Part shown: positions 18,424 to 57,900 of the stretch, one piece after another | Layout: each line of letters opens with the position of its first letter | How positions within the stretch are numbered: position 1 is the first letter of the stretch | Assembly: GCA_965231095.1 (NCBI GenBank) | Contig: OZ246416.1 | Coordinates: 677,595 to 741,594 of the forward strand | Reading direction: 5' to 3' | DNA: 64,000 bases | DNA from: an uncultured Gammaproteobacteria bacterium | GTDB lineage: Bacteria; Patescibacteriota; Patescibacteriia; XYB2-FULL-38-15 | Position numbers and translations under genes: made by a program | Notes under the pieces: generated by a model | Databases searched by the model: none | Told to the model about the DNA's origin: nothing | What the model saw: the letters and a program-made list of their open reading frames with translations, nothing else

Positions 18424-18712
18424 AAAAATGTTTTAGTTTTATTTGTTGGTTGTATGTTTTGCACAATCAATCTTTTGTTTTATATTTTTAAAATATAGTA
18501 ATAACAAGCGTTTTGATTTTTGTGGATAGTTTTTGAAAAACGTTTTTGTTTAAAGAAAATTTTCATCTAGGCGGCTGTGGAAGAAAAATTTTTAGTTGTG
18601 GAAGTTTGGTGGAGAAAATTTGTGCCTTGGAGTTTTTTGGTTTTTTATCCCCATCTTAACAATTTTCTTCCACACAATTTTCCACCGAGTTTTGCACAGC
18701 CACTTTTTATTT
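18424..18712. promoter_or_regulatory. oriC: Candidate oriC: AT-rich dnaA-dnaN intergenic region with at least 6 DnaA-box-like 9-mers
   Basis: TGTGGATAG 18521-29, CTGTGGAAG 18575-83, TTGTGGAAG 18596-604, TTATCCCCA 18645-53, TTCCACACA 18668-76, TTTCCACCG 18680-88 (consensus TTATCCACA). Confidence 0.55.
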
Positions 18713-26687: not shown

Positions 26688-26952
26688 AAAGAAAATTTCT
26701 AATTTCCAATTTCCAATAAATGTTCAATAACCAGCGCCCGGATTCAAGCTTTGTCATTTAACATTTTAAATTTTGATTTTATTAGAAATTAGGCATTAGT
26801 AATTGGGAATTAAATTAATGGTCTATCTTAATACTATCACGAATTTCTGTCAAAGGCATGAGGACGGGGGTGAAAAGATAGCGGGACATTTTTATCTGTG
26901 GGCGGGTGCTAATTCTTGCCAAAGAATCCGTGAAAATGTAAAATACATCAAT

Positions 26953-31624: not shown

Positions 31625-33161
<1,537 letters not shown>

Positions 33162-33357
33162 AGGGAGAAAAAAATATTGTCCCCCTCACGGGACAAGATT
33201 GGTCGAAGTTTCATTTATTTGAAACTTTCAAAGTTATTAGGTGTGAAAAGATAAGAAAGCCGTACTTCTGTTACTTCAAGTTGTCAAATGCAAAAATGAT
33301 TGGTAAACTCTTGCAAGAACCAATCATTTTTGTTATCATTTTAGAAGTATATTTCGT

Positions 33358-33434
33358 GGGCGCGTAGCTCAGTCGGTTAGAGCGCGTCACTGATAATGAC
33401 GAGGTCGGAGGTTCGATTCCTCCCGCGCCCACCA
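33358..33434 (+). tRNA. tRNA-Ile (GAT), CCA encoded
   Basis: Cloverleaf folded by hand: acceptor gggcgcg/cgcgccc, anticodon loop ctGATaa. Confidence 0.9.
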
Positions 33435-33443
33435 TGAATTTTT

Positions 33444-33650
33444 ATGAAAGAAAGAGAACACGGACCAGAAAGAAAGTTGAATAAATATACCTATTGTGAT
33501 AATTCGGCGAAGGGTGAAGTTATTTTTGAATGCGTTGCTGAAAATATACTTGAAGCGGATAAACTCTACGAGGCGGCAACGGGCAAAAATCCGGAAAAGC
33601 AAAATCATGTTGGGTGCTCCGTAGAAAAAATAGAAGAAAATAAAATTTAA
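33444..33650 (+). CDS. Small hypothetical ORF between tRNA-Ile and tRNA-Phe
   Basis: 68-aa ORF only; no motif. Confidence 0.2.
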   Translation: MKEREHGPERKLNKYTYCDNSAKGEVIFECVAENILEADKLYEAATGKNPEKQNHVGCSVEKIEENKI

Positions 33651-33658
33651 TTATTCTT

Positions 33659-33730
33659 GCCGGGGTAGCTCAGTGGTAGAGCGAAGGACTGAAAATCCTT
33701 GCGTCGTGAGTCCGATTCTCACCCCCGGCA
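33659..33730 (+). tRNA. tRNA-Phe (GAA)
   Basis: acceptor gccgggg/ccccggc, anticodon loop ctGAAaa. Confidence 0.9.
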
Positions 33731-33746
33731 TTTGGCATTTTAAAAC

Positions 33747-33817
33747 CGGGGTGTAGTACAACGGTAGTATGCATGCTTTGGGAGCATGAGACCCGGGTTC
33801 AATTCCCGGCACCCCGA
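33747..33817 (+). tRNA. tRNA-Pro (TGG)
   Basis: acceptor cggggtg/caccccg, anticodon stem catgc/gcatg, loop ttTGGga. Confidence 0.85.
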
Positions 33818-33844
33818 TAAAAGTCCCGTGACGGGAATTAAATT

Positions 33845-34165
33845 ATGGAAAACGACAAAGATCTCGAAATTTTACCCCCAGAAGAAGTAGCGGAGAAAAT
33901 AAAAAATTTTCCCGGTTGGATTTATGCGAACGATAAAATAACAAAAACTTTTTTGTTTCCGACTTTTGATGATGGGCTGGCTTTAGTCGGCGAGCTCGCG
34001 CCTTTTTCCAATAGAATTGATCACCATCCGGATATTCATATTTATTATAAAAAAATAGTTTTTGATCTGCAGCGTTTTAGCGTTGGCGGAAAAGTGACTG
34101 AGCGAGATTTTACAGTCGCAGAAGAAATCGAACGTTTATACGCGGCGAAAAATTATAATTTATAA
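33845..34165 (+). CDS. Pterin-4a-carbinolamine dehydratase (PCD/DCoH)
   Basis: EIERLYAAKNY and DHHPDIHIYYKK match PCD signature [EDKH]x3H[HN]Px5-6[YW]. Confidence 0.7.
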   Translation: MENDKDLEILPPEEVAEKIKNFPGWIYANDKITKTFLFPTFDDGLALVGELAPFSNRIDHHPDIHIYYKKIVFDLQRFSVGGKVTERDFTVAEEIERLYAAKNYNL

Positions 34166-34169
34166 AATT

Positions 34170-34241
34170 GCGGGCGTCGTATAATGGCTATTATGTCACC
34201 CTTCCAAGGTGAAAATGCCGGTTCGATTCCGGTCGCCCGCT
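34170..34241 (+). tRNA. tRNA-Gly (TCC)
   Basis: acceptor gcgggcg/cgcccgc, anticodon stem tcacc/ggtga, loop ctTCCaa; D-stem imperfect. Confidence 0.75.
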
Positions 34242-41985: not shown

Positions 41986-42184
41986 TTCTTTATTAAGATT
42001 ATATCAGAAAAAGGATGTGGCAGTAAAGGGCTTATTTAAAAAATAAGAAAATTTTTGTAATAGTAAGTAAAAGATTAAGAAAAAAAGAGAAGAAAAAACC
42101 TATCTTATATTTTACGACACTTGATTTTATTTAATATAAGGTAAAATTTAAGGAAGACGTTCAAAATATAAATTGTTCTCCCCT

Positions 42185-42256
42185 GCCCTCGTAGCTCAAC
42201 GGATAGAGCAAACCCGTCCTAAGGGTGAGATGGGGGTTCAATTCCCTCCGGGGGCA
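42185..42256 (+). tRNA. tRNA-Arg (CCT)
   Basis: acceptor gccctcg/cgggggc (one GU), anticodon loop gtCCTaa, T-loop ttcaatt. Confidence 0.8.
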
Positions 42257-42268
42257 AAAAATAATCTT

Positions 42269-42775
42269 ATGGCCGGAAAAGATAGATATATTATCGCTAA
42301 AAATTGGCCATTTGTTGTGGTTGGCTGTCTTGTAGTAAGGGGCGATAAAGTGCTTTTAGTCAAGGAGGCGAGAAAAGAAGCCGGGAGTTGGAATCAGCCA
42401 GCCGGTTGGTTAGAAAAATATGAAAATCCTGTTGTTGGGGCTAAAAGAGAAGCAGAGGAAGAAACAGGTTTTAGAATTAAAATTAAGGGGTTTTTGGGAG
42501 TTTACAGTTTGGATCGTAGAAAAGTAAAAAGATGGCAAAGGGCGGGGCCAGTTGATCTACATGCTATTAAATTTTTATTTATCGCAAAAGTGGTAGGAAG
42601 GGGGCAAAAATTAAATCCTCTAGAAATTGCCGAAGTTAGGTGGTTTAGTTTAAAAGAGATTAAAAACCTTCATAAGCAGAAAATTTTGCGCGATCCGGAT
42701 ATGATCAATGAGGTTCAAGATTATTTGGCGGGTAGAAGTTATGACCTTAAATTAGTTCGTCATCTTATAGTTTAA
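42269..42775 (+). CDS. NUDIX hydrolase
   Basis: Nudix box GWLEKYENPVVGAKREAEEETGF; start trimmed from 42173 because the longer frame overlaps tRNA-Arg. Confidence 0.75.
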   Translation: MAGKDRYIIAKNWPFVVVGCLVVRGDKVLLVKEARKEAGSWNQPAGWLEKYENPVVGAKREAEEETGFRIKIKGFLGVYSLDRRKVKRWQRAGPVDLHAIKFLFIAKVVGRGQKLNPLEIAEVRWFSLKEIKNLHKQKILRDPDMINEVQDYLAGRSYDLKLVRHLIV

Positions 42776-42789
42776 ATTATTTATTTCGC

Positions 42790-42860
42790 GGGCCCGTAGT
42801 AAAGTGGTATTACGCCGCATTCGCATTGCGGAGGCGGGAGTTCGATTCTCCCCGGGTCCA
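42790..42860 (+). tRNA. tRNA-Ala (CGC)
   Basis: G3:U70 identity pair (gggcccg/cgggtcc), anticodon loop ttCGCat, discriminator A. Confidence 0.85.
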
Positions 42861-42864
42861 CTTT

Positions 42865-42890
42865 AAAACCCACCAATTATGGTGGGTTTT
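42865..42890 (+). terminator. Perfect hairpin aaaacccacc-aattat-ggtgggtttt
   Basis: 10-bp stem after tRNA-Ala. Confidence 0.55.
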
Positions 42891-42960
42891 AAAATTGTTT
42901 CACGTGAAACAATTTTGATAAAGAAAGGTTTTTAAAGCAATTGTTTCACGTGAAACAATT
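42891..42960. promoter_or_regulatory. Two copies of a perfect 22-26 bp palindrome AATTGTTTCACGTGAAACAATT (CACGTG core), 21 bp apart; candidate dimeric transcription-factor operator
   Basis: 42891-42916 and 42939-42960 are exact self-complementary copies. Confidence 0.5.
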
Positions 42961-43255
42961 AATAAATTACATATTTTAATAAATTAAATGTTTTTAATTA
43001 TTATAAAATATAGATTATTTTTTTGATTAATGATAAATTTTTTATTTGTGAAAAGAACGATGACATTTTGTGGATAACTTGTAAGTAAAATTTACCGTAT
43101 CGCTAGGAAACTGGTTTTATCGGCGTTGGGGGGGGTGGGATAGAGGGTGAGTGGTGTCGAGTGGTTTTTAACAAAAAAGTGAACATTAATCTTAACACAA
43201 TGTGTAGAATAACTTACACATAGTCAATGAACTAAAAAGTTGTTCACATCTGCGA

Positions 43256-43284
43256 TTGACTTTTTCGTAAAATCGTGGTATAAT
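43256..43284 (+). promoter_or_regulatory. Textbook sigma70 promoter TTGACT-17-(TGg)TATAAT heading the surface-protein operon, followed by ~250-nt structured leader
   Basis: Hexamers, 17-bp spacer and extended -10 TG read directly. Confidence 0.6.
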
Positions 43285-43539
43285 AATTATGTAAGTTATG
43301 ATAGTTAATAGGGAAAGGAGATTTTGTTTCTTTTTCCTGATAGTTATCAACAATTTAATATAAAAGGTAGCAGAGGTTAAGGTTTCTTTCCCAATCAAGG
43401 TCGTTTTCAAAAACGATCTCGTCCCGGAGGCGGCGTTTGTCGGCCGGGAGTGCCCGTTAGTACCCCAAAGGTGCTTGTACCCGAGTACCTTGGAACAGAA
43501 ATTTTAATCTTAGGTTTACCTTGAAATAGGTGATCGACG

Positions 43540-44223
43540 TTGTTTATGAAATATTTTTTCATAAAACTCATTATAATCACTTTTGTTTTTATTTCTCTCA
43601 TTGCTCTGTGGAAGGCGCCAGTTAGCTTGGCCCTGATGAATTCGGAGAGTTATATTAACTGGATGGATTCGCTGAATTTTGGGGGAGAAGAAACCTCCAC
43701 TTCAACAAACTATAGATTCCAAGATACTTTAGGAGAGATTGGGACAGGGGAAATTTCGAGCACCAATTATGCCGGCTTGATAGGTTTTCGCCAATCTGAC
43801 GCGGATCCCAAGATGACTTTTTCCATTTCCGATACTTCAGTGGACTTTGGTACATTGTCTACGAGCGCGGTTTCTTCGGACAGCATTACGATTACAAGTA
43901 CGACAAACGCGGTGGATGGATATATTACAACAATTTTTGAAACAGAAAATTTAAAAACCGGGGCAGGTGCGGATATTGATGATGTGGCCGATGGAACAGT
44001 GACGGCCGGTTCGGAAGAATACGGTGTCAGAACTTCCGGCGCTGACGGACAGATGAACGGGGCGGACACGGGGATTACAACTTCGCCGCAAACAGTTGCT
44101 TCTAACGCGAGTTGGATAAATGGAAGCGCGGTGACAATAACTTTTAAGGCAGCAATTTCATCGCTTACGTCCGCAGGGGCTTACGCGCACAATGTCACAT
44201 TGATTTCCACCGGAAGATTTTAA
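43540..44223 (+). CDS. Secreted beta-rich surface protein, paralog A (C-terminal ...LISTGRF)
   Basis: Signal peptide; shares ANDGY/AVDGY, EE(Y/F)GV(R/S)TS and C-terminal (F/L)ISTG(T/R)F with next gene. Confidence 0.6.
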   Translation: MFMKYFFIKLIIITFVFISLIALWKAPVSLALMNSESYINWMDSLNFGGEETSTSTNYRFQDTLGEIGTGEISSTNYAGLIGFRQSDADPKMTFSISDTSVDFGTLSTSAVSSDSITITSTTNAVDGYITTIFETENLKTGAGADIDDVADGTVTAGSEEYGVRTSGADGQMNGADTGITTSPQTVASNASWINGSAVTITFKAAISSLTSAGAYAHNVTLISTGRF

Positions 44224-44254
44224 AAATTCGCAGTTTATTATTTTTTAAAAATAT

Positions 44255-45358
44255 ATGGAAAGAAAAAAATTAGTTAAAAAAATTGTTTGGGGGACTCTTC
44301 TGAGTTTAATTTTGATGTTGGGTTTTCCGTCGGTTCCGGCGCGCGCGACGCACAGTGTTATTAAAGATACGATGAGCCGCCTCAAGGCGTCCACCGCGTC
44401 AAATCACACAATTACTTTTACGCTGGATGCGTCAACAAATATTATTGAGAATGAAACAATCACTATTACTTTTGCCGCGTCTTGGGTAGATGGGTTAAAC
44501 AGCATTGATTGCGAGGATATTGATATTTTGGATGATGGTGTGGAAGAATCAATTGCTGAGGTGGCCGTAGAGGCTTGCGCGGCCGATGCCGATGAATGGG
44601 GGGCTGTGGTTGCGGGAGATGTTCTTACTTTGACTGCTCCGTCTACGGGCTCAACTTATATTGATGCGAGCTCGGTAGTAATCATAGAAATTGGTACAAA
44701 TGCAACAGAAGAACATACTGGCAATACGCAGATTACAAATCCGGTCGCGGCTAATAATTTGGTTGTGAATATTGGCGGTACGGGTGATAGCGGAACAGAT
44801 CCGGACGGGCAATTCGCGGTTTCGATTATCGCGGAAGATCAGGTGACAGTGACGGCCACGGTTTTGCCGACTTTTACTTTTACAATTAGCGCAAGTACGT
44901 GTGCCCTAGGGGACTTGACTCTTGGCACAGTGCAAACCTGCGGTGTAACTTTAACAACGACAACCAATGCCAACGATGGTTATGCCACGACGATAGTTGG
45001 AACGGCTTCTGGCGCAGAGATGGTGCATTCCAACGCCACAGATAACATTGATAATGCCGGGGGTACAGTGGTTAGTCCTAATTCGGAAGAGTTCGGCGTG
45101 AGCACGAGCGATTCGTTGGTAGATATTGAACAATTAACTACGCACGGTAGTTGTGTATTGGCCGATGGTGTCGCTGTTGATGTTAGTGGTGTATCAATTG
45201 ATACACTTGGCGATAATACGGCCGCTTCAATCGCCTCAAATACCGTTCCGGTTTCCGCGGAAGCAACAACCGCCTGCTTTGTCGCTTCTGCCGCGGCAAC
45301 AACGGCTGCCGGCGAATATTCTTCTACGGTAACATTTATTTCTACCGGCACATTTTAA
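44255..45358 (+). CDS. Secreted surface protein, paralog B; N-terminal module duplicated in the 756-aa dockerin protein
   Basis: Signal peptide; DTMSRLK...ENETITITF...GLNSIDCEDIDILDDGVEE...CAADADEWGA...LTLTAPST module also at start of 46533 gene; ends TFISTGTF. Confidence 0.6.
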   Translation: MERKKLVKKIVWGTLLSLILMLGFPSVPARATHSVIKDTMSRLKASTASNHTITFTLDASTNIIENETITITFAASWVDGLNSIDCEDIDILDDGVEESIAEVAVEACAADADEWGAVVAGDVLTLTAPSTGSTYIDASSVVIIEIGTNATEEHTGNTQITNPVAANNLVVNIGGTGDSGTDPDGQFAVSIIAEDQVTVTATVLPTFTFTISASTCALGDLTLGTVQTCGVTLTTTTNANDGYATTIVGTASGAEMVHSNATDNIDNAGGTVVSPNSEEFGVSTSDSLVDIEQLTTHGSCVLADGVAVDVSGVSIDTLGDNTAASIASNTVPVSAEATTACFVASAAATTAAGEYSSTVTFISTGTF

Positions 45359-45431
45359 TTTTTATAAAATAATGTTTTTCCCCGCGGTAATTTACGCGGA
45401 AAGAAAAACCATAATTTAAAATAGGGGGACT

Positions 45432-46454
45432 ATGAAAAAAGTTTTTTTCGCGATTACTCTGGCTGCTTTAATTTTTGGCTTGGCGCCGGCGATCGCCTCC
45501 GCGACAACAATTTCTCCGCCGGTCATAGAATTTGACGCGCGGCCGGGGGATACAATTGTTGATGTTATTAAATTGTTTAATGAGACGGCTGAAGAAGTTA
45601 CCTTGACCGGAGAGGTGAGAACTTTTAAAGCGTTGAATGAAACCGGCGCGCCGTCATTTCTTCCCCCTGAAGAATCAACTGATTTGGCAACTTGGTTAAA
45701 ACTTGACGAGGCGACAGTCACTCTGCCGGCTGACGAGAGAAAAGATATTTTGTTTAGTATTAATGTTCCGGAAAACGCCGAGCCGGGCGGACACTTTGCC
45801 GGAATTCTTTGGACGCCGACTGGCGCACCAGCATTAGAAGGAAGCGGAGTTGGCATTACCATGAAAACCGGAACTTTGGTTTTGGTTCGCGTGGCAGGAG
45901 ATGTTAATGAGACCGGACGGCTGGCGAGTTTTACGGCCGACAGAGCTTCTTATAATTATTTGCCTGTTAATTTTTCAGTTCGTTTTGAAAATTTAGGAAA
46001 TGTTCATTTAAAACCGGCGGGCGTGATTGAAATTAAAAATTTGTTAGGAAGAAAAGTCGCCGCGCTTCCGGTGAATGGAGATTTATCAAACGTTCTCCCC
46101 GAGTCAATAAGAAAATTTGATGCGACTTGGCAAAAAACAGAAGTGCCGCTTGGCGCGTCCGAATGGCAAAGAGAAATGGACAATTTTGCTTGGGGAAAAT
46201 ATACCGCCACGCTTATTTTGGATTATGGAATAGATGGGCAACAAACATCCGCCTCGCTCGCTTTCTGGGTTTTTCCGTGGCGCGTGACTCTTTTCTATCT
46301 GGCCATAGCGATAATAATTATTCTCTTAATTATCATTGGTATTAGAAGCTATAATAAGTGGGTTATAAAAAAATTCAGTCAGCAAAACAATCAACAAAAT
46401 AATCCTCCAAGCGATTTGCCAACCGACGGAGTTGACGATCAAAAAATGGAGTAG
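45432..46454 (+). CDS. Surface protein with signal peptide, beta-rich ectodomain and single C-terminal TM anchor + Q/N-rich tail (DUF916/DUF3324, CscA-like architecture)
   Basis: MKKVFFAITLAALIFGLAPAIASA signal; C-terminal VTLFYLAIAIIIILLIIIGIRSY TM; family call by architecture only. Confidence 0.5.
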   Translation: MKKVFFAITLAALIFGLAPAIASATTISPPVIEFDARPGDTIVDVIKLFNETAEEVTLTGEVRTFKALNETGAPSFLPPEESTDLATWLKLDEATVTLPADERKDILFSINVPENAEPGGHFAGILWTPTGAPALEGSGVGITMKTGTLVLVRVAGDVNETGRLASFTADRASYNYLPVNFSVRFENLGNVHLKPAGVIEIKNLLGRKVAALPVNGDLSNVLPESIRKFDATWQKTEVPLGASEWQREMDNFAWGKYTATLILDYGIDGQQTSASLAFWVFPWRVTLFYLAIAIIIILLIIIGIRSYNKWVIKKFSQQNNQQNNPPSDLPTDGVDDQKME

Positions 46455-46532
46455 GGGATTCGCGCGGAAAAAAAGAAATTTATAGAGCTTAGATAAAAGC
46501 GTAAAAACAAAAATCAAAATTAAAAAACGTCA

Positions 46533-48803
46533 ATGGGGGAGTTTGTAAGAAAAAAAAGTATTGGTATTTTAATCACGGTTCTTACCCTGACAAGTTTTTT
46601 CGTTGGATTCAATCAATCTGCTGCCAGCAAACTTTCTTCGGTCAGCGACACGATGAGCAGGCAGAAAATCGGAGTATCCGCCAATCATGAAATTATTTTT
46701 ACTTTAGCCGGCGGATCGGCAGTCACGGAAAATGAAACGATTACGATTATTTTTCCGACTGGTTTTGCTTCGGGGTTAAATAGTATAGAGTGTGGTGATG
46801 TTGATTTATTGGATGATGGAGTTCAAGAAAATTTTGCGGCGTCGCCCGGATGCGCGGCGGATGCGGACGAATGGGGCGCGGCGGTCAGTACAAGGACATT
46901 GACACTTACGGCGCCGTCTACGGCCGCGACTTATATTAATGCGAGCTCAGTTGTCACTTTGCGGGTTGGAACAAATACAACAGAAGAAGGGGTAGGCAAT
47001 GCGCAGATTGTTAATCCTGGGAGCGCGGGAAGTAAGGTAATAAATATTGGGGGAACTTTTGGCGATTCAATCGAGATTGCCATTGCCATTGTGACAAATG
47101 ATCAAGCCGCGGTTATCGGGACTATTCCGACAGGCGATACTCCGGGCGGCGGTTCACCCGGGTCAGACACGACGCCGCCAATTATTTCAAATTTAAGAGT
47201 GGAAAATATTTTACAAACTTCGGCCACGGTTCTTTGGGACACAAATGAACCGGCGACTTCAAGAGTGAATTATGGCTTGACGAGTGGCTATGGATCGTCC
47301 ACTACGGGCGACGGCGGAGGATTAGTTCTTAGCCATAGAGTTGATCTGACCGGACTCACGGCAGATACAATTTATCATTTTAATGTAGTGACAGCCGATT
47401 CGCTTGGACATACAACGACTACAGTTGACGATACTTTTAGAACGCTTTCCGGCCTAGATATTACCGCTCCTGTAATTTCCAATATTCAAGTTATAAATAT
47501 TACGGAGACCGGCGCGACTGTGACATGGACAACAAATGAGCCGGCAAATTCAAAAGTAGAATATGGTTTGACCGACGCGTATGAATTGGGAGAAATAACC
47601 GCCGCGGATTTTGTGGCTTCGCATAGTTTGCCGCTCGCGGGATTAACAGGAAACACAACATATCATTTCCGCGTGACGTCGGCTGATTCTTCCGGTAATG
47701 CCGCGACTTCTCCTGACGGCACTTTTACGACAATTGCTCCGGCAGACCTGACAGCGCCAATTATTTCAAATATCAGAGTTATAAATATTACAGAAAATTC
47801 CGCGACTGTTACTTGGGACACGAATGAGGCGGCAAATTCAAGGGTGCGATATGGTTTGACGGCAACTTACGGATTGGGAAATATTTTTTCCGCCGATTTA
47901 GTTTTGGCACACAGTATAAATTTAAGTTCCTTGACTCGCAGCACAATTTATCATTTTGAAATTACTTCATCTGACAGCTCGGGGAACACGGCCGTTTCCG
48001 GAGACAGAACTTTTTCAACTTTACCGGATATAATTCCGCCGGGAAATGTGACAGATTTTTTAGCCACGCCAACTGCGGCGAGAACAATTTTATTGACCTG
48101 GGTTAATCCAACTGATACTGATTTTGCCGGAGTTTTAATTAAGAGAAGTTTTACTGGGTATCCGGCAAGTCCGGCTGACGGAGAATTAGTTTTTGACGGA
48201 GTAGCAACCTCCTTTCCCGATACAGCAATCACTCCCGCAAATTATAACCGACCAATTTACTACACAGCTTTTGCCTATGACACAACTGGAAATTTTGCTT
48301 CAGGCGCTCTGGCAGAAGCGACGATTGAAGTGTCCCTGACATTAGACGTTAAGGCCTGGCCGGAAAAAAGATGGCCGCGAAGCGGAAATTGGTCAACCAG
48401 AGGCGCGGTGGAATTGAGGGATGTGGCAACATCAAATATTTTATATGAAGATACTGTTGCGACCTCAGACCTTGGTTTGGGCTCGGTGGAATTTCCCACG
48501 GCACCGATTGTAAATTATGATATTAGCTTTAAAGGTTTGTCGCATTTAAGAAAAATTTTGCGCGACGCTCCACTTTCGGGCGGAGTAAATTCATTGGATT
48601 TTACTTTAGCAAATACTTTTTATCTTTTGGCCGGAGACGTTCATCGCTCGTCTGATAATATGGTAAACGCCCTGGATATTTCCACCCTGCTCGGTTCTCT
48701 TTCCACCGGCAACGAAGTTACTGATTTGAATCATGACACCGGAGTCAATTCTTTGGATATAAATATTTTATTGGCCAACCTGATGGTCAGGGGAGACGAA
48801 TAA
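46533..48803 (+). CDS. Secreted multidomain protein: paralog-B-like N-module, three FN3-like repeats, C-terminal dockerin
   Basis: Three ~100-aa repeats (P(V/I)ISN(L/I)(R/Q)V...TV(L/T)W(D/T)TNE...YHF.(V/I)TS(A/S)DS.GN); C-terminal SDNMVNALDISTLL and DLNHDTGVNSLDINILLANL match dockerin Ca-binding DxNxDGxVNxxD repeats. Confidence 0.7.
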   Translation: MGEFVRKKSIGILITVLTLTSFFVGFNQSAASKLSSVSDTMSRQKIGVSANHEIIFTLAGGSAVTENETITIIFPTGFASGLNSIECGDVDLLDDGVQENFAASPGCAADADEWGAAVSTRTLTLTAPSTAATYINASSVVTLRVGTNTTEEGVGNAQIVNPGSAGSKVINIGGTFGDSIEIAIAIVTNDQAAVIGTIPTGDTPGGGSPGSDTTPPIISNLRVENILQTSATVLWDTNEPATSRVNYGLTSGYGSSTTGDGGGLVLSHRVDLTGLTADTIYHFNVVTADSLGHTTTTVDDTFRTLSGLDITAPVISNIQVINITETGATVTWTTNEPANSKVEYGLTDAYELGEITAADFVASHSLPLAGLTGNTTYHFRVTSADSSGNAATSPDGTFTTIAPADLTAPIISNIRVINITENSATVTWDTNEAANSRVRYGLTATYGLGNIFSADLVLAHSINLSSLTRSTIYHFEITSSDSSGNTAVSGDRTFSTLPDIIPPGNVTDFLATPTAARTILLTWVNPTDTDFAGVLIKRSFTGYPASPADGELVFDGVATSFPDTAITPANYNRPIYYTAFAYDTTGNFASGALAEATIEVSLTLDVKAWPEKRWPRSGNWSTRGAVELRDVATSNILYEDTVATSDLGLGSVEFPTAPIVNYDISFKGLSHLRKILRDAPLSGGVNSLDFTLANTFYLLAGDVHRSSDNMVNALDISTLLGSLSTGNEVTDLNHDTGVNSLDINILLANLMVRGDE

Positions 48804-48807
48804 AGAT

Positions 48808-51435
48808 ATGAGGAGGATAATTTATACAATTGCTGCGATTGGTTTCAGTTTTCTTCTCGGCCAAGCCGCGCTTGCCGCTCGCTTTGAATTATCTCCCGCT
48901 TCAACTGGTTTTATTACCGGATGCGATTCGGCGGTGAGCATTGAAATTGATACTGAAGGAGTAACTTCTGATGCGGCAAATGTTTTGGTTCATTATGATC
49001 CAACAAAAATTGAAATAGTTGATACAAATCCATCGGCAGCCGGAATCCAAATCAGAAATGGAAATGCTTACGAGGCTTATGCTGACAATACTGTTTTGTC
49101 GGGAAGCGGAGTGATTCGCTTAACTGGATTTTCTTTTATAAGTCATCTTTCCGGCCGAGCAACTTTCGGAACAATTATTTTCCGCGGACGACCCGGAGCA
49201 GCTGATGCAAATTTCACAATTGAATATGTGGCAGGTAGCACAACCGACAGCAATATTGCCGAATATCTTACAAGTGATGACCTTTTAACCGGAGTAGGAA
49301 ACGGCGCTTACACTTTTCGCGGCGGATCGTGCGTGGCCGACGTTGTCCCACCAAATGTTTTAAACCCAACTCCCGCACCAGATGAACGCGACGTGCCGCT
49401 TGATACAAATATTACTTTTGATATTCGCGACGCTCAGTCCGGAGTTGACTTGGATACCTTAACAATAAATGTTGACGGAACAATTTATACGCGCGACGGA
49501 TTAAGCAGATTTTCTTTTGTCGGGACGCCGGCGTCCTATGCCGTGGCAATAAACCCCAACACAGATTTTATTTTAGGTTCGCCGGTGCTTGTGGAAATCA
49601 ATGCTTCTGATTTTTCCGGAAACAGCATGGCTCCGTATCGTTATATTTTTAATCAGCCGGCCGCTCCGCCGCCAGTTCCGCCATCATGCGCCGCGCTTGG
49701 TTGCGCCACTCCGACTGAATGTACCGCCGATCCGGTTTTGCCGGAAGATATTGATGAAGAACCGACCGTTCCTGAATCGCAACAACTTTCTTTCTCGGAT
49801 TTTTCTTTTTACGGCGCTGATGGAACAATCCAACTTTTACCAAATCGAAATAATGAAATAACAACTCTCGCCGGGAGCTCGGTAATTGTTTCCGCCGCGG
49901 CGAGCAAATTTCCTCGTGAGGTGGCGCGGGTCGTCATAACCCTAAACGGTCGGTCGTATCTTCTCGGTTATAATTTGACGGCAGATGCGTATCAAACAAT
50001 TTTGCAAATGCCCGCCGCCGGATTGCATTCTTCAATAATTTTGATTGATTACGCGGACGATTCGCACGATCGCGTAGAGGGCGCTTTTTCACTTTTATCC
50101 CAAGGTTTTGTTTGGCAAGGAACAACGGCAAATAAATTATCCGGCGCAACCGTCACGCTTTACGAAAGTTCTCCCGCGTCTCGCGTTTGGGATGCCGCTC
50201 TTTATCGTCAAGATAATCCAATAACAACTAATGCGTCCGGCCAATTTTCATATCTCGTTCCGTTAGGTCGTTATTATTTAGTAATTTCAAAAGAGGGCTA
50301 TCGCGACCAAACCACGCCGGTTTTTGAAGTCGCAAACAATGTTGTAAATCCGAGCGTGGAAATTCTCGTCGTCCCTCCGCCGCTTGCCGAAGTTTGGGAT
50401 CCGGCCGCGCCCGTCACGGAAAATTTACAAAATGTTATTGAAAATTTAGGCCAAAAAACAATTTACGCAAGTGAAGTTTTACAAAAAGATGTTTTGGATA
50501 ATCCGGCGGTGGAAGAAAGTACGGAAAATATTGCCGCGCCGGCCGTGGCCGCCGTGGCCGTTGTCACTTACGGCACCGCCATTTCTCTTGGTTCGCTTTT
50601 GCCATTTTTACAATTACTTTTTACCCAACCGATTTTACTTCTTTTTCCAAAACGGAGAAAAGGTTGGGGAACGGTTTATCATTCTTTATCAAAAATGCCG
50701 GTGGATTTGGCGATTGTTCGTTTGTATGAAAAAGTGACAAATCGCTTGGTGCAAACTCGCGTGACGGATAAAGAAGGGCGCTTCGCGTTTTTCGTCCAGC
50801 CCGGACAATATTTTATCAAAGTAATAAAACCCAATTTTTCTTTCCCGACAAATTTTTTGAAAAATACAAAAGAAGATGTTAAATATTTTGATCTTTATCA
50901 CGGCGAAGAAATTACCGTGACGGAAAAAAATACTCTCGTCACGCCAAACATTCCGATTGATCCGGAGGGAGAGGGGAAAATGTCGCCTGACAAAAAAGTT
51001 CTCTTTGTTCATTTTGGAAGAAAAATTCAAAACATTATCGCGCCGTTGGGAATTGTCGCCGCCACTATTTCAGTTTTGGTCTCGCCGCAAATTTGGATGG
51101 TCGCGATTTTGGCCGGACACTGTTTACTCTATGCTCTTTTCCGACGATTGGCGAGAAGTAAAAAACCAAAGAGCTGGGGAATTGTTTATGAAAGTAAAAC
51201 TAAATCTCCGGTCGGACTCACTGTCGCAAGAATTTTTGAAACCGAATACAACAAACTTTTGGAAACACAAGTGACCGACGGCCGCGGCAGATATTCATTC
51301 TTGGTCGGCTCGAACGCCTACTACGTGACTTTCAGCAAACCGGGTTTTGAACCGAAGAGAACCGAGACGGTTGATCTTCGCGGAGCAAAAGAAGGAGGAG
51401 CGGTGGGGTTGGATGTGGGGTTGGATAAAGTATAG
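48808..51435 (+). CDS. Membrane-anchored scaffold-like protein: N-terminal cohesin-like domain, Ig-like region, carboxypeptidase-regulatory-like domains, two TM segments
   Basis: Signal peptide; FELSPASTGFITGCDSAVSIEIDTEGVTSDAANVLVHYDPTKIEIVD...FGTIIFRG resembles type-I cohesin (YDPxxLEI); CarbopepD_reg-like (TVTLYESSPAS...SGQFSYLVPLGRYYLVISKEGY; VRLYEKVTNRL...GRFAFFVQPGQYFIKV); TM ~50500-50640 and ~51050-51130. Confidence 0.65.
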   Translation: MRRIIYTIAAIGFSFLLGQAALAARFELSPASTGFITGCDSAVSIEIDTEGVTSDAANVLVHYDPTKIEIVDTNPSAAGIQIRNGNAYEAYADNTVLSGSGVIRLTGFSFISHLSGRATFGTIIFRGRPGAADANFTIEYVAGSTTDSNIAEYLTSDDLLTGVGNGAYTFRGGSCVADVVPPNVLNPTPAPDERDVPLDTNITFDIRDAQSGVDLDTLTINVDGTIYTRDGLSRFSFVGTPASYAVAINPNTDFILGSPVLVEINASDFSGNSMAPYRYIFNQPAAPPPVPPSCAALGCATPTECTADPVLPEDIDEEPTVPESQQLSFSDFSFYGADGTIQLLPNRNNEITTLAGSSVIVSAAASKFPREVARVVITLNGRSYLLGYNLTADAYQTILQMPAAGLHSSIILIDYADDSHDRVEGAFSLLSQGFVWQGTTANKLSGATVTLYESSPASRVWDAALYRQDNPITTNASGQFSYLVPLGRYYLVISKEGYRDQTTPVFEVANNVVNPSVEILVVPPPLAEVWDPAAPVTENLQNVIENLGQKTIYASEVLQKDVLDNPAVEESTENIAAPAVAAVAVVTYGTAISLGSLLPFLQLLFTQPILLLFPKRRKGWGTVYHSLSKMPVDLAIVRLYEKVTNRLVQTRVTDKEGRFAFFVQPGQYFIKVIKPNFSFPTNFLKNTKEDVKYFDLYHGEEITVTEKNTLVTPNIPIDPEGEGKMSPDKKVLFVHFGRKIQNIIAPLGIVAATISVLVSPQIWMVAILAGHCLLYALFRRLARSKKPKSWGIVYESKTKSPVGLTVARIFETEYNKLLETQVTDGRGRYSFLVGSNAYYVTFSKPGFEPKRTETVDLRGAKEGGAVGLDVGLDKV

Positions 51436-51492: not shown

Positions 51493-51840
51493 ATGAATCA
51501 TTTAATCACATTTGCCAAAAATTTAAGAGAAAATTCCACTGACGCAGAGAGATTATTGTGGCACTACCTTAGAGCAAAACAATTTGGTGATTTAAAGTTT
51601 AGAAGACAGCAGATCATTGGAAAATATATCGTAGATTTTGTTTGTTTTGCTAAGAAGATTGTTATTGAACTTGATGGAAGTCAACACGCAGATGTAGATA
51701 ACAAACTAAAAGATAAAATAAGAGATAGGTGGTTAGGAAGTCAAGGATTTATTGTTCTTCGTTTTTGGGACAATGATGTTTTAAAAAATATTGAAGGAGT
51801 TTGGGGTGAAATTGAAAAGCAGTTACACCCCTCTCCCTAA
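51493..51840 (+). CDS. DUF559 endonuclease-domain protein (Vsr/restriction-endonuclease-like fold), probable selfish element
   Basis: 115 aa, ...DFVCFAKKIVIELDGSQHAD...; flanked by CCCTCCC/GGGAGGG palindromes; strong GGAGG SD unlike neighbours. Confidence 0.7.
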   Translation: MNHLITFAKNLRENSTDAERLLWHYLRAKQFGDLKFRRQQIIGKYIVDFVCFAKKIVIELDGSQHADVDNKLKDKIRDRWLGSQGFIVLRFWDNDVLKNIEGVWGEIEKQLHPSP

Positions 51841-51998: not shown

Positions 51999-54900
51999 AT
52001 GTTTAGTCCAGGAGGAGAAAAACCTAATATTGTAATTAAATCCCAAGGCGGAACCAACTTGACTCTGTTGGTGTTTGTCTTGGGTATTTTGTCATTAACG
52101 AGCGTTGGAATAATGACGCTCTCGGTCGTGGAGCAACTCCGGCCGGTGGCTTTTACGGCAATCAATAAACAACTTAATTATCAAGGCAAACTGCAAAACG
52201 CGGGGGGTATCACCCTTCCAGACGGGAATTATTCAATGAAGTTTTCCGTCTACGACGCGGCCGCGGCCGGCACGCGGCTTTGGACAGAATGCGGTACGGT
52301 CGGCACGCCAACGGCGCGAACCGTCGCGGTCGCGAACGGAGTTTTTTCGGTGCTGCTCGGCGATACGGCTTCCGGCGCTTGCCCGGGCCCGGCGAATGCC
52401 AACGCCATCACTTTGGATTTTAACAGCGACGCATATTATCTCGGTTTGACGGTTGAAGCCGACTCGGAAATGACGCCGAGAAAACGTCTCGGCGCTTCGG
52501 GCTATGCTTTTAACGCCGATTTATTGGACGGCCTTAATACTTCCGCCGCCGGCGGCTCAAACGCTTTCGTGCCGGTGACGGACGCGAGCGGCCATTTAAC
52601 TTTGACACAAAATTTAACTTTGGGCGGAGTGTTTAAAAATTCCGACGGCTCTGCCGCTTCGCCTTCCTATACTTTTACGAACGATCCCAACACAGGTTTT
52701 TATAGCGCGGCGGGAAATAATATTGGAGTCGCGGCAAATGGCGCGATGATTGCATATTTGATGGCGACGACCAATTACACTGATTCGTATTTCTATTCTC
52801 CAAGATTTATCACGCCGGCAACAACAAATTACCCGATGACTTTGACCGGAAGAATAGATGATGGAGCAGCCGCGGTCGGAGTGATTTTAGACAACTCCAC
52901 AACTTTGGCAACGGCGGGCGCGAAGATTGTCTCCTTTAAAAACAACACCACCGAAAAAGCCGCCATAGGTTTGAATGGCGAAGTTATGGCAGGGGCTGGG
53001 ACGGCTTTATTGCCCGCCCTTTCATTTTTAGGAGATCCAAATACCGGTTTTTATACCTACTCGGCAAATCAAATAGGAATCGCCAACGATGGAGGAATCA
53101 CCGGCGTCTTTTCTTCGGGTTCTCTATATATCAATTATATATTGGCGCTTTCCGGGAACACTTTAAACCTTACCGGTTCAATGGCAGACGGAGGAACGGC
53201 AGTTGGCGTGAAATTGGGTTCTTCTGTAGACCTTACAGTTGCGGGAAGTAAGATTGCTTCTTTTGTAGACAATAACACGACCGAAAAATCCGCTATTGGG
53301 CTTAATGGCGAAATAATGGCCGGAGCGGGAACAGCGTTGTTGCCTTCATTAAGTTTTCTCGGCGACCCGAATTCTGGAATGTATACTTACGCTTCCGATA
53401 CTTTGGGTTTTGCCGTAGGGGGGACAGCAGTCGGAGTCTGGGACGGCTCCACGATTTATGTTCCGGCGGTTCATCCTCTCGCTACTACGGCGTTGACTTT
53501 GAAGGGTAGGGTAGCAGACGGCGGAACCGCGGTAGGCGTGATTTTGGACAACACAACTTCCCTGACAACTGCAGGAGCAAAATTAGTTAGCATTAAAAAT
53601 GCTACAGTAGAAAAAGCATATATTGATAAGGATGGTAACGCCTACCTCCCCGGATTAAATGTTTCCGGCCTCACCGCCTCTTTAGCTGTCTACACCGACG
53701 GATCAAAAAATTTAACCTCAACCGCTCCGACTTCCGGCGCGATTGGATATTGGTCTCGCGCCACGACAACTTTGTCTCCAACAACGGCGAATGATAATAT
53801 TTCGGTTAGTTCAAATGTTACCGGAGCGGCGATTACCGGAACAGCTTCCGCCACCGGCGCGGTCATAAACTATGGCGTCTACGGCACTGCCGCAGGCAAC
53901 TCCGCCAAGGGCGTTTACGGAAGTGCCACCGCCACCGGCGCAGTGTTAAATTTCGGCGGAGATTTTTACGCGGCGGGCAATAGCGGCCAGGCCGTGCGCG
54001 GAACGGCTTCCGCCACCGGCGCGGTGACAAACTACGGCGGCGTTTTCTATGCCGCGGGTGACACGGGTTTTGGTATTGTTGCCGACGCGACATCAACTAA
54101 TGCCGGACAAAATTTTGGCGGATATTTTTATGCCAGAGGCACTACCGGCGTTGCTGTTTTTGGCAATGCCCCGGCCACCGGTGCTGTCACAAACTACGGC
54201 GGTAGTTTCCAGGCGGCGGGCAATAGCGGCCAAGCGGTGCGCGGCAATGCCACGGCCACCGGCGCGGCGGCAAACTATGGCGGCACATTTTATTCAGCGG
54301 GTAATTCCGGCGTAGCGGTTTATGGCTCGGCTTCCGCCACCGGCGCGGTCACAAACTACGGCGGGCAGTTTTATTCAGCCGGCGATACTGGTATGGCCGT
54401 TTTTGGTTACGCCACCGGCGCTGGCCTAAACTATGGCATTTATGGTTCCACAAATTCTGCCTCCGGATGGAGCGGATATTTTAACGGCGGTTTGGGTATG
54501 TATGCTTCCGCGGCGAGAATTAATTCTCTCACCGCTTCTTCCGCGGTCTATACCGACGCGTCAAAAAATTTAACTTCCACCGCTCCGACTTCCGGCGCGA
54601 TTGGATATTGGTCTCGGAGCAGTACAACATTAAGTACGGCTACAGCCGGCGACATAGTTTCTCTTTCCGGCGGTTTGAATATGAACGCGAGTCCGATTAC
54701 CGCTTCGTATATTTCCACAAATCCTTGGGGAACAAACTCGGTTGGTTCGGCAAACGGCGTGGGCCTGCAGATGAATCGGTTGCTCGGCGCGAACACCGGA
54801 CGCTATACCGTCACTTCAAGCGGCATTAATACAACCTCTGTTTTGTTTGATAATTTTTATGATTCCGCGGGAACCATTGCGGTCGGGGACACGGGCGTTA

Positions 54901-57900
54901 TTACAGTTGATTTTAATCCTCAACTTGCTTGGACAGCCAGCACGGCAACAGGTTTTGTTTATCAGAACGGAATAATTGTAATGAGTTTTTATAATACAGT
55001 TATACCGACCGACGTGACAGTGGAAGTTTATAGATGTTCGCCAAACGTTGATTGCGCGGCCGGGACAGGAACTGACGCTTGGGTGACGATTTACAGCACA
55101 ACAACCAACGATAAAAATCCTTTGGTTATCAGCCCGACTCCGTCTGTCAATTATATTAAGAGAATAAGATTTACTTTTGCCGATGGCGATCCGACTTATG
55201 GTTCATGGATTTCTGAATTGGAATGGTTTCCGACTCGTGACGCTTCGGCAAACCAATTGGCTGTTCTTCCAAAATATTTCAACCAAAGCCTAGACGTTTC
55301 CTGGACGAGTTGGAATATGAAAAAAGTTGCCGACTGGAGCACGACCGCGACAATTTCAAACGCCGGCGCGGCGTATTTTGCCGGACCGGTTGGTGTAAAT
55401 GATGCCGGACCCGACGCTTCTTTGGAAGTTGTAAATGACGGCTCGGGGGATTCTTTCTTGGTCGCCGATACTAATGATGGAGATGCTACGCCATTTGTGA
55501 TTCAAGCAGATGGGGATGTTGGTATTGGAACAGCGGCACCAGCTGCTTTATTACACATAGCAAAAGACTCAACATACAATAGTGAGGCAGCGGCAGGCAT
55601 AAAAATAACTGATTCAACTTTAACTGATACTGGTCTTCTTTTGGGCGCCGACGCGACAAACGATATTGCCTACATCCAATCAATGGATCCGGGAACGGGT
55701 TACACTAGGGCGCTTTCAATAAATCCTAATGGCGGAATGACAAGATTATTTATGAACAGGGGCGCAGCGGCTGGAACAGGTATTTCTTGGTATTTACCAA
55801 CTTTTACGGCGTGGGCGGAATACATGGCTCAGGCGACGCAAACCCTAGCCGGTCCGACGGCAAACATTACTGCTCCTTCGGGAACGATTGTTACCTCGTG
55901 GGCACTCAGAAGTTTTATTGAAAATGCCTCTAATTACGGTTGGACTTTTGAATCGGGAACATCAACTGGTCAGCCGAGTGTAGTGGCGGAAATTAGATCT
56001 AGCGACGGAACAATCAGATCAAATACTAGCGTTCTCGCTGCCGTGAGTATGGGCATCGGCGACGATACCCCCGACGCTTCTTTGGAAGTTGTGAACGACG
56101 GTTCGGGAGATTCGTTCTTGGTCGCCGATACAAATGATGGCGACGCTACGCCTTTTGTAATTGACCCCGACGGAGATGTTGGCATTGGAACAACAGGACC
56201 TCTCACTAAATTTCATGTAAATAGCGCGAATACATTAACCGGTTCTTATCATCAGGCCGTGATAACCTCAAGTGATACGGCGGCGATTGATAAGGGCGGG
56301 TCAATTGGTTTTGGCGGAGCTTATACGGGAACAACCCTGACACAGTGGGCGGGCATCTCGGGAAGAAAGGAAAATGTGACGGCCGGAAATTATGCCGGCT
56401 ATCTTGCTTTGGAAACAAGAGCAAATGGTGGAAATCTTACGGAACAAGTGCGTATTGATTCCGCGGGAAGTGTTGGTATTGGAACAACCGGACCGGACAG
56501 AAAATTGGATGTGTTGGCCGCCTCAAGCCCGCAATTGCGTTTGACTCAAGTTGACAATACCACTTACGCAGATTTTCAAGTTGATTCCAACGGTGATTTG
56601 ATAATGAATGTTGATGGCATCTCAAGCCAACTGGTTTTAGATAATGGCGGGAATATCGGGATTGGAACCGCGGCGCCGGCCGGGGCCTTGGATATAGTTT
56701 CCGCAAACGCCCCCACCTTGCGTCTCGCGACGAACGCGACCGACGCTACGGTTAAATACGGGTATGTCGCTTCTCGCCATTATACGAATGCCGAGCAAGA
56801 TCTTATGGTATTTATGAGTGGAAGTTCCGCCACGGAAAATAGCATTCGTTTGGGCGGAGGATCAGGATCTTTTAATGCGACAAATAGAATATCTTTTTAT
56901 ACGGCCGCGGATCAAATAACTTTGGACGGAACCGAAAGAATGAAGATAGATTCATCGGGCAACATTTGGATAAATTCTCTTGACGCCTCTTCAATCGTCT
57001 ACACTGACGCTTCAAAAAATTTAACTTCAACTCCTCCGGGTGCGGGAACGATCGGATATTGGTCTCGAGGTGGGACGACTTTATCTCCGGCGACGGCGAA
57101 TGATGTGGTTTCCGTTTCGGGCACTGGCGCGACAGCGATTACCGGCACAAGTTCAGCCGCGGGAGGCAAAGGAATTTATGGCACAGCGACCGACGCGACT
57201 GCTGTTGCAAATTACGGAGTTTATGGAACAGCCGCTGGGACAGGAGCTCTTTCTGCCGGCGTTTACGGCGTAGCTTCGGGCGCGGCGAATTCCGTTACCG
57301 GCGTATATGCTGAGGCTTCGAATACGGGCGCTTATGAAAATTACGGCGGAGCCTTTTTTGCGCGGGGAGAGACCGGCGTCGGCATCTACGGCGAAGGAGT
57401 TTCTACTGCCGCGGCTGTAAATTACGGCGGAAAATTTTCTGCTCATGGTAAGGCCACTGGTTCAGCCGCTGTTTACGGTGCGGCGCCCGAGGCCGGAGCG
57501 TTCACAAGTTATGGCGGATATTTTACGACAGTTAGCGATACCGGCAGAGGTGTTTACGGCTCGGCTACGGCTTCCGGCGCAGTCACAAACTACGGCGGAT
57601 ATTTTACCTCGGCCGGAACAGGCATTCTGACAAGTGGTGTTTACGGAGAAGCTTCTGGCGCGGCAAATAATATCGCAGGAATTTATGGCAAGGCGTCAAA
57701 TACAGGGGCTTATACAAATTTCGGCGGGGTGTTTTACGCCGCCGGAGAAACGGGCATTGGTATTCGCGGTGAGGCTACTTCCACCGCGGCGGCCATAAAT
57801 TTTGGCGCAAAGTTTTACGCGAATGGCGCAGCATCAGGTACGGCTGGCGTTTATGGACAAGGCGTTGATACCACTGCCATCGTTAATTATGGAGGATATT

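Follow-up and report, generated by a model that had tools for sequence, protein, structure and literature searches.

The region described here lies in a 64,000-nucleotide stretch of contig OZ246416.1 (assembly GCA_965231095.1, positions 677,595 to 741,594, forward strand), hereafter the window, which belongs to an uncultured member of the Patescibacteriota with a Falkowbacteria-like genome. Within the window, a 650-bp spacer separates the gene for tRNA-Ala(cgc) from the first gene of a five-gene operon related to the Pam pilus system known from bacteria in the Candidate Phyla Radiation (CPR), and we conclude that this spacer is a composite of separate elements, which comprise two parS sites, a DnaA box, a promoter preceded by dyads and a structured leader RNA. 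The leader RNA family and the association of a DnaA box with the pilus promoter are new, whereas the adjoining parS sites are of a kind already known. As an explanation of the whole, with the Pam-like operon included, we consider this composite account probable. The features, as predicted from the sequence, are the following, with positions given in the window.

42790-42861, + strand: tRNA-Ala(cgc) gene, found by ARAGORN and Rfam
42862-42893, + strand: hairpin resembling an intrinsic terminator of the tRNA transcript, with a 14-pair stem, directly preceding the first parS site
42896-42911, no strand: parS site 1, the 16-bp core TGTTTCACGTGAAACA within a 26-bp palindrome (42891-42916)
42942-42957, no strand: parS site 2, the same 16-bp core within a 22-bp palindrome (42939-42960)
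42961-43060, no strand: AT-rich spacer, poorly conserved
43069-43077, - strand: perfect DnaA box, TTATCCACA on the - strand and TGTGGATAA on the + strand (relaxed consensus TTWTNCACA)
43128-43147, + strand: G-rich tract GGGGGGGGTGGGATAGAGGG, with runs G8, G3 and G3 on the coding strand in the AT-rich spacer
43182-43193: dyad 1, AACATTAATCTT, which begins a conserved upstream region (43182-43246)
43201-43220: dyad 2, TGTGTA-N8-TACACA
43228-43246: dyad 3, TGAAC-N9-GTTCA, overlapping a DnaA-box-like TTGTTCACA at 43240-43248
43256-43284, + strand: sigma-70-type extended -10 promoter, TTGACT-17-TGgTATAAT
43287-43363, + strand: helix P1, a long 5'-proximal hairpin in whose base the first transcribed nucleotides are paired
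43364-43522, + strand: leader domain 2, in which helix P2 (43364-43391 with 43492-43522) encloses a hairpin core
43398-43419, 43422-43449, 43450-43463 and 43468-43491, + strand: hairpins of the core enclosed by P2
43528-43582, + strand: translation initiation region, with the Shine-Dalgarno sequence AGGTGATC at 43528-43535 and the ATG at 43546-43548
43546-51435, + strand: five-gene Pam-like pilus operon, identified with NCBIfam and Pfam

The promoter at 43256-43284 is the best promoter-like site of the region, matching 11 of 12 hexamer positions in addition to the TG of the extended -10 element. Its presence had been reported by the first-pass annotation, which was made from the sequence of this stretch, and it is conserved: TTGACTTTTT and TGnTATA are invariant in 7-15 relatives, namely all those having the leader described below. 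We conclude that this is an ordinary but well-conserved promoter, which is predicted to drive the operon from a transcription start near 43291. Directly upstream, alignments of related loci (A2 and A4) reveal a conserved 85-bp block that holds the three dyads, which are plausible and realistic candidates for operators of the operon. The TTGTTCACA that overlaps dyad 3 reads TTATTCACA in several relatives, which makes it a relaxed DnaA box. Runs of G of the GGGGATAGGGGA type are seen again in relatives at a place equivalent to that of the G-rich tract; a G-quadruplex was considered for the tract and rejected, as a four-run motif is present in just 2 of 13 relatives. In some relatives, open reading frames of homing-endonuclease type (LAGLIDADG, GIY-YIG) lie within the spacer between parS and promoter or inside the pilus operon (L206 1160-1456, L208 129-524, L209 4955-5215 and L206 5433-5674, where L numbers denote loci of related genomes).

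We also investigated the perfect DnaA box TGTGGATAA, which the first-pass annotation had correctly placed at 43069-43077 and which is the sole perfect DnaA box in the 64-kb window. One perfect 9-mer per 64 kb is approximately what chance would provide, so the significance of the box rests on its conservation. Alignments of the spacer show TTTGTGGATAAC without variation amid AT-rich DNA that otherwise cannot be aligned, and the box is invariant in 13 related genomes. Equal amounts of DNA from the related loci contain 41 perfect DnaA boxes upstream of the pilus gene and 7 downstream. Furthermore, 13 close relatives have 166-187 bp between the box and the -35 element (approximately 176 bp), whereas the interval separating parS and the box differs among relatives by hundreds of bp. 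In distant relatives, 2-4 DnaA-type boxes (TTGTCCACA, TGTGGATAA, TTATCCACT/C, TTTTCCACA) occur within approximately 150 bp upstream of the operon. Five distant loci (L066, L068, L070, L074, L075) also feature a second conserved palindrome, TTTGTCYACA-N6-TGTAGACAAA, whose two halves each resemble a DnaA box and which lies ahead of the DnaA box, approximately 15-40 bp upstream of TGTGGATAA. By these comparisons, the DnaA box is conserved far beyond chance and is positionally tied to the promoter.

DnaA boxes outside the origin of replication (oriC) are found at dnaA, nrdAB and datA in Escherichia coli and at the DBCs, sda and others in Bacillus subtilis. The site described here resembles these in being a perfect, conserved 9-mer upstream of an origin-near promoter in a genome in which dnaA is present, and differs from DnaA-controlled promoters and clusters of that type in being a single box, predicted from sequence, approximately 176 bp upstream of a -35 element. 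We know of no report that places a pilus operon within the DnaA regulon. The conservation points to DnaA input to the pilus promoter or, alternatively, to a DnaA-titrating site: DnaA bound approximately 176 bp upstream of the -35 element may modulate the promoter or be titrated there, and DnaA at the box would tie pilus expression to the replication cycle. Two points weigh against DnaA as the factor that acts on the promoter. The single perfect box lies at a long distance from the promoter by the standards of a classical repressor or activator, and the relaxed box TTGTTCACA lies within a dyad whose other arm is also conserved, which suits another dimeric factor better than DnaA. A reading in which a factor other than DnaA binds the conserved TGTGGATAA, or in which the sequence is kept for a structural reason, appears rather unlikely to us. 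It gains from there being one site only, 176 bp from the promoter, in a clade that lacks a DnaA-trio or a second strong box; it has to contend with a 9/9 match to the DnaA consensus in dozens of genomes, the excess of boxes upstream of the pilus gene, the further DnaA-type boxes that accompany this one in distant relatives and the presence of dnaA.

Transcription from this promoter would yield an untranslated leader of approximately 255 nt. The first-pass annotation had described the leader as rich in hairpins, and our folding analysis bears this out: 43285-43545 folds at -88.7 kcal/mol with a z-score of -6.5 relative to dinucleotide shuffles, and both hairpins quoted in that annotation are part of the minimum-energy fold. 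Searches with nhmmer recovered leader homologues from approximately 20 loci, of which 15 distinct ones were aligned. All lie directly upstream of an orthologous gene with protein identity of at least 56%, and within the window and these fetched loci the leader occurs only upstream of the pilus gene. For 13 of the 15 homologues the z-scores are between -3 and -8, and P1 and P2 appear in each of the independent folds. RNAalifold on six sequences identified 20 pairs with compensatory changes. The leader is conserved in approximately 15 relatives.

The helices differ in how they are conserved. Despite a sequence identity of 45%, P1 folds into a 15-25-bp hairpin in all but two of the 15 homologues. 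In several genomes, its 5' arm is a purine run that resembles a Shine-Dalgarno sequence (AAGGAGG, GGGAAAGGAG) and is paired with a pyrimidine run resembling the 3' end of 16S rRNA (CUUUUUCCU); such an arm, which recalls STAB-SD elements, is seen at 43310-43338 of the window and in L201, L203, L204, L207, L208 and L007, and is absent from some relatives. P2 contains a nearly invariant core of 19-20 bp (43373-43391 with 43492-43511) with one bulged C, which is a bulged pyrimidine across homologues. The strands of P2 are 87-89% identical, and in a register test 93.6% of cells were paired as opposed to 58-62% when the partner strand was slid by one column. A single AU to GC compensatory pair was found in P2, in 6 sequences; this low covariation arises because the sequence of P2 hardly varies. 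The core enclosed by P2 is composed of 2-4 hairpins among homologues, is variable in length and sequence, and is 53% identical. A small GUAC-CCRA-GUAC hairpin module (GUACCCAAGUACCC) recurs in the leader cores of L002, L005, L008, L203 and L208 and in the window (43476-43487), and its position shifts from the 5' side to the 3' side by genome, with a copy on both sides in L208.

Scans against Rfam 15, at the gathering threshold for the whole window and at E-values up to 10 for 42700-43700, returned only chance-level hits in 43285-43545, which means that the leader matches no Rfam family. Models of 6S RNA, signal recognition particle (SRP) RNA, RNase P RNA, transfer-messenger RNA (tmRNA) and the T-box likewise gave no match at E-values up to 10, and we rejected these identities. 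Judged by its folds and its conservation, we conclude that the leader of approximately 255 nt represents a genuine, previously undescribed family of structured 5' untranslated regions (5' UTRs). Several observations temper this conclusion. P2 and the start-codon helices hardly vary in sequence and so display little or no covariation, and their conservation could partly reflect constraint on the Shine-Dalgarno sequence and coding sequence, or a function at the level of DNA or protein binding. Moreover, homologues with less than approximately 50% identity lack the leader and have TGGTATAAT 7-14 nt before the ATG, so the leader is not essential to the system and instead is a lineage-specific addition. 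In five loci (L022, L027, L049, L052, L053), TGGTATAAT stands at this distance with no Shine-Dalgarno sequence in the 30 nt before the ATG, and the corresponding mRNAs appear to be leaderless or near-leaderless.

The first-pass annotation had proposed an uncharacterised cis-regulatory RNA that senses a metabolite or second messenger, of which the first part stands, in that the leader is a conserved structured RNA absent from Rfam, and the sensing function finds no support. A riboswitch or other ligand-sensing RNA for the pilus genes would account for a long, conserved and strongly structured leader directly upstream of a Shine-Dalgarno sequence that is predicted to be sequestered, and the leader would then constitute a new class. 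It shares with the riboswitches of Rfam its 5' UTR position, size and strong fold, and differs from them in matching no family and in its inverted pattern of conservation: the core, where a ligand pocket would be expected, varies in sequence, length and number of hairpins, and the closing helix is nearly invariant. Neither a terminator nor a conserved alternative pairing was found in the leader, and distant orthologous operons do without it. We consider ligand sensing unlikely. A helix that stays invariant while the core inside it varies is the reverse of what an aptamer shows, which makes a function in stability, processing or translational control more likely for the leader.

The pattern of P2 points to a helix that is recognised as such, for instance by RNase III or another double-strand-specific protein, or that is constrained on both strands. 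Known mRNA stabilisers and processed leaders of strongly expressed surface-protein genes include the ompA 5' UTR, S-layer leaders, aprE, the STAB-SD of cryIIIA and the RNase III-processed leaders of pnp and rnc. Like the stabilisers, the pilus leader follows a strong promoter and is long, with its 5' end in a stem; P2, at approximately 20 bp, is long enough for RNase III; and several P1 arms are purine-rich and Shine-Dalgarno-like, as in STAB-SD elements of the cryIIIA type. Unlike the stabilisers, to which it has no sequence homology, the pilus leader is far larger, contains a multi-branched domain and is predicted from sequence. In the mechanism that we favour, P1 would protect the 5' end of the transcript from 5'-dependent decay, P2 would serve as an RNase III-like processing site or a protein-binding site, and structure around the start codon would gate translation initiation.

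The last of these steps concerns the translation initiation region. Only 5 nt separate the end of P2 from the very strong 8-nt Shine-Dalgarno sequence AGGTGATC, which is 10 nt from the AUG. The start had previously been assigned to an ATG at 43540; the codon there is in fact TTG, for which relatives have CTG or TTA, and the conserved start is the ATG at 43546 that follows the Shine-Dalgarno sequence. A start-stop mini-reading frame (ATG TAA) at 43290 was also rejected, as it lies at the transcription start without a Shine-Dalgarno sequence and its start is not conserved. When 45 nt of coding sequence were included in the fold, the pairing probability of the Shine-Dalgarno sequence was 0.63-0.99 across the 15 homologues, and that of the AUG was approximately 1.0 in 14 of the 15 and 0.65 in the fifteenth. 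The hairpin predicted to bury the AUG pairs TTTATGAAA (43543-43551) with TTTCATAAA (43557-43565, codons 5-7), and the AGGTGAT of the Shine-Dalgarno region is predicted to pair with ATCACTT (43576-43582, codons 11-13). In this model, both the Shine-Dalgarno sequence and the AUG are buried by early coding sequence. The start-region pairs are 94% conserved and never vary, which yields zero covariation and renders the covariation test uninformative either way. The C-ending codons UUC and AUC do not vary, which in an AT-rich genome is no more than suggestive.

At the other end of the spacer, the terminator hairpin of tRNA-Ala(cgc) abuts the first palindrome; the first-pass annotation had missed both the tRNA gene and the hairpin. 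Hairpins of other sequence hold the same place in the related loci L001, L002 and L004. The palindrome AATTGTTTCACGTGAAACAATT occurs exactly twice, at 42893-42914 (within the 26-bp palindrome) and at 42939-42960, where shuffled sequences predict zero occurrences; the two exact copies had been noted before, with 42891-42916 given for the first. The two parS sites that they contain have centres 46 bp apart, and both cores agree with the parS consensus tGTTNCACGTGAAACa at all 16 positions. For B. subtilis the consensus reads TGTTNCACGTGAAACA, and for Hyphomonas it reads exactly TGTTTCACGTGAAACA (PMC7022226, Table 1). An exact-match scan for the 16-mer TGTTTCACGTGAAACA, with one genome per species, yielded at least 120 loci of 8 kb each from Streptomyces, Alphaproteobacteria, Clostridia, Saccharibacteria and others, and frequently more than one copy was present in a cluster. 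Among the matches listed, 41 of 120 have an open reading frame with a ParB signature within the 8-kb locus, and the two that were checked contain the ParB_N, HTH_ParB and ParB_C domains of Pfam. The parS pair is located approximately 24 kb from dnaA-dnaN and the probable oriC, or approximately 3% of the 886-kb chromosome, with an SMC gene nearby. An origin-proximal placement near SMC is usual for parS.

Comparison with relatives supports the same assignment. Approximately 50 related Patescibacteria loci contain 59 parS-like sites (at most 2 mismatches) upstream of the pilus gene and none downstream, with 1-4 copies per locus, a pair spacing of 44-57 bp and a distance to the gene of -89 to about -1500. 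In distant relatives, the sites directly flank tRNA-Arg(cct) and tRNA-Ala(cgc), and they track the tRNAs as closely as they track the pilus gene. Variants in relatives keep the symmetry of the site (TGTTCCACGTGGAACA, TGTTTCGCGCGAAACA, TGTTTCCCGGGAAACA), and the changes include positions 7 and 10. These two positions are unable to pair across a 2-nt loop, which indicates recognition of the dyad by protein rather than formation of a hairpin. The symmetric changes at positions 7 and 10 also rule out a hairpin or terminator as the main explanation of the palindromes; Rfam hits over them (Leu_leader at 43.9 bits with a gathering threshold of 50, miRNA precursors and small RNAs) reflect the hairpin potential of palindrome and terminator. 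In this clade, the parS cores are embedded within longer perfect palindromes of 22-36 bp (42891-42916 of the window, 3322-3349 of L002, 2572-2607 of L017), whose flanks differ among genomes yet are symmetric (AATT/AATT, CTGGAA/TTCCAG, CTTTCTTTTT/AAAAAGAAAG).

Taken together, we conclude from these comparisons that the palindromes are canonical parS centromere sites, an element of a known kind, because the core is that of parS and because relatives differ in copy number and spacing; they do not form an operator pair. ParB would bind both sites, and ParB dimers loaded on them past the tRNA terminator would organise and segregate the origin region. Like the sites bound by Spo0J/ParB in B. subtilis, those described here match at 16 of 16 positions, belong to several origin-proximal copies and have symmetric variants in relatives. 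They differ from the B. subtilis sites in lying within longer palindromes with covarying flanks and in their deep synteny with a tRNA pair and a pilus operon. One result weighs against the assignment to parS, as the 64-kb window contains no parB gene. A literature search for ParB or parS in Patescibacteria returned nothing usable.

The first-pass annotation had instead interpreted the palindromes as the operator pair of a dimeric repressor or activator, and a transcription factor of that type acting on the pilus operon now appears very improbable. As would befit an operator, the palindromes are perfect dyads, and many genomes conserve them upstream, and never downstream, of the homologous gene. 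However, their core is identical to universal parS and co-occurs with parB genes in unrelated phyla; they are approximately 340 bp from the -35 element; their spacing and number are not fixed; they flank tRNA-Arg and tRNA-Ala in distant relatives; and better operator candidates exist in the dyads immediately upstream of the -35 element. The 64 kb contain no third copy of AATTGTTTCACGTGAAACAATT even with 3 mismatches allowed. A side effect of the parS sites on the promoter 340 bp away is conceivable through ParB spreading. ParB at parS can spread and affect neighbouring genes, as at the com operon of Streptococcus pneumoniae (PMC4488948). Since such spreading is known and the pilus promoter is only 340 bp off, a regulatory link of this kind may exist. 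A practical consequence for sequence scans is that, for a perfect 16-bp palindrome centred on CACGTG in the vicinity of dnaA, parS should be the first reading and an operator only the second.

The presence of parS, an AT-rich stretch and a DnaA box within one spacer raises the question of whether the spacer itself is oriC. The genes that bear on this question are listed below.

17275-18423, - strand: dnaN
18713-20074, - strand: dnaA, with an rpmH-like gene upstream
26803-29211: SMC gene

Hardly any credence can be given to an origin at 43 kb. The intergenic region 42862-43255 has 28% G+C, the spacer is the most AT-rich long one examined and contains the window's only perfect DnaA box, parS adjoins it, and distant relatives cluster 2-4 DnaA-type boxes here. 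However, cumulative GC skew in the 64-kb window has its minimum at 13.4-26 kb and climbs steadily between 26 and 64 kb, so that positive skew flanks 43 kb on either side with no change of sign there. This clade has one strong box at 43 kb, and its position follows the promoter. The window also has the rpmH-dnaA-dnaN arrangement with a typical oriC candidate between dnaA and dnaN: the 289-bp spacer 18424-18712 has 29% G+C, an AT-rich stretch and at least 6 DnaA boxes of the TGTGGA/TCCACA type. The pilus spacer was rejected as oriC on the GC skew and on this better candidate next to dnaA. The dnaA-dnaN spacer is the probable oriC, as its boxes and low G+C content make it the most likely candidate, although the exact position of the origin could be anywhere within 13-27 kb. 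The skew minimum is broad and double (approximately 13.4 kb and approximately 26 kb), the genes between 1 and 17 kb run along the + strand despite negative skew there, and gene orientation flips at 26.35-26.8 kb.

Finally, an independent small RNA gene (6S-like or similar) in place of a leader is extremely improbable, because the strong promoter and the long closing helix around an internal domain that might suggest one are set against the lack of a terminator before the Shine-Dalgarno sequence, the end of P2 only 5 nt upstream of that sequence, the lack of a match to 6S, SRP, RNase P or tmRNA models even at E = 10, and the occurrence of the region, in the window and approximately 20 loci, upstream of this gene only.

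The operon downstream of the leader had been described as a surface or adhesin operon, which we refine to a distant Pam-type pilus operon. Its five genes, all on the + strand, are as follows.

Gene 1: PamT-like protein of 225 amino acids (NCBIfam NF058579, 65.7 bits with a cutoff of 240, E = 4e-18)
Gene 2: protein of 367 amino acids with a Pam-pilin C-terminal domain
Gene 3: putatively membrane-anchored, chaperone-like protein of 340 amino acids, with a weak match to a WxLIP-type Ig-like domain and a C-terminal hydrophobic stretch that resembles a membrane anchor
Gene 4: FnIII protein of 756 amino acids, with three FnIII domains (Pfam)
Gene 5: protein of 875 amino acids with CarboxypepD_reg domains

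Genes 1 and 2 both match NF058581, the Pam pilin C-terminal domain, with 36.3 and 30.9 bits, which are below the cutoff of 55 yet, with E-values of 5e-9 and 2e-7, indicate distant homology. The Pam pilus operon of Candidatus Mycosynbacter amalyticus encodes membrane-anchored chaperones (PamC/D) and an RbmA-like anchor, PamR (Troman et al., bioRxiv 10.64898/2026.03.03.709456). The operon in the window parallels this arrangement, with matches to PamT and pilin followed by chaperone-like and FnIII proteins in place of PamC/D and PamR, and its gene order is compatible. It differs in that its scores are far under the NCBIfam cutoffs and in that Pam has been reported mainly in Saccharimonadia and Microgenomatia (bioRxiv 10.64898/2026.03.03.709456), whereas the genome here is Falkowbacteria-like. 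Based on these similarities in sequence and order, the operon probably belongs to the Pam pilus system of CPR bacteria as a distant member. That report makes no mention of promoter, UTR or tRNA, and no match for the word origin in it means a replication origin (bioRxiv 10.64898/2026.03.03.709456).

The Pam pilus was described only in 2026 and without regulatory information, and the locus described here offers testable cis-elements for the system, namely three dyads and the conserved promoter that they precede, a DnaA box whose position is fixed, and a structured leader that is specific to the lineage and absent from Rfam. To our knowledge, almost nothing is known of gene regulation in CPR/Patescibacteria. 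The canonical parS sites, which sit in a deeply conserved block of tRNA genes, parS and pilus operon, presumably mean that these ultra-small bacteria use segregation of the ParABS type. A more speculative possibility, to which we assign a small chance, joins the elements: pilus expression would be wired to the chromosome cycle by the DnaA box at its fixed distance and by ParB spreading, with a sensor leader in addition. The leader of approximately 255 nt would then be a new class that truly senses a protein or small molecule, and translation of the first pilin would be gated by the invariant 20-bp helix together with the Shine-Dalgarno sequence and AUG in their sequestered state. If so, expression of a host-contact pilus would be linked to the chromosome cycle in one lineage of Patescibacteria.

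The surroundings of the spacer are themselves conserved. The block consists of rmuC, tRNA-Arg(cct), (NUDIX), tRNA-Ala, parS and the pilus operon, and the deeply conserved gene order in relatives is polA, holA, rmuC, tRNA-Arg, tRNA-Ala and pilus operon; most related loci have the same tRNA-Arg/tRNA-Ala pair upstream. The open reading frame of the NUDIX hydrolase as called (42173-42775) overlaps tRNA-Arg(cct) at 42184-42257, and its true start is therefore further downstream, near 42269. Downstream of the operon, a DUF559 endonuclease-like gene (51493-51840) precedes the gene for a giant protein of 3118 amino acids (51999-61355), which features dozens of repeats of the GAVTNYGG-F-AAG type and a proline-rich C-terminus. 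The window also contains one 16S rRNA gene and seven tRNA genes (ARAGORN, Rfam). The 16S rRNA gene is followed by those for tRNA-Ile, Phe, Pro and Gly (31625-34241) without a 23S gene, which resembles an unlinked rRNA arrangement, and a separate gene for a 23S rRNA intervening sequence protein lies at 61419-61805.

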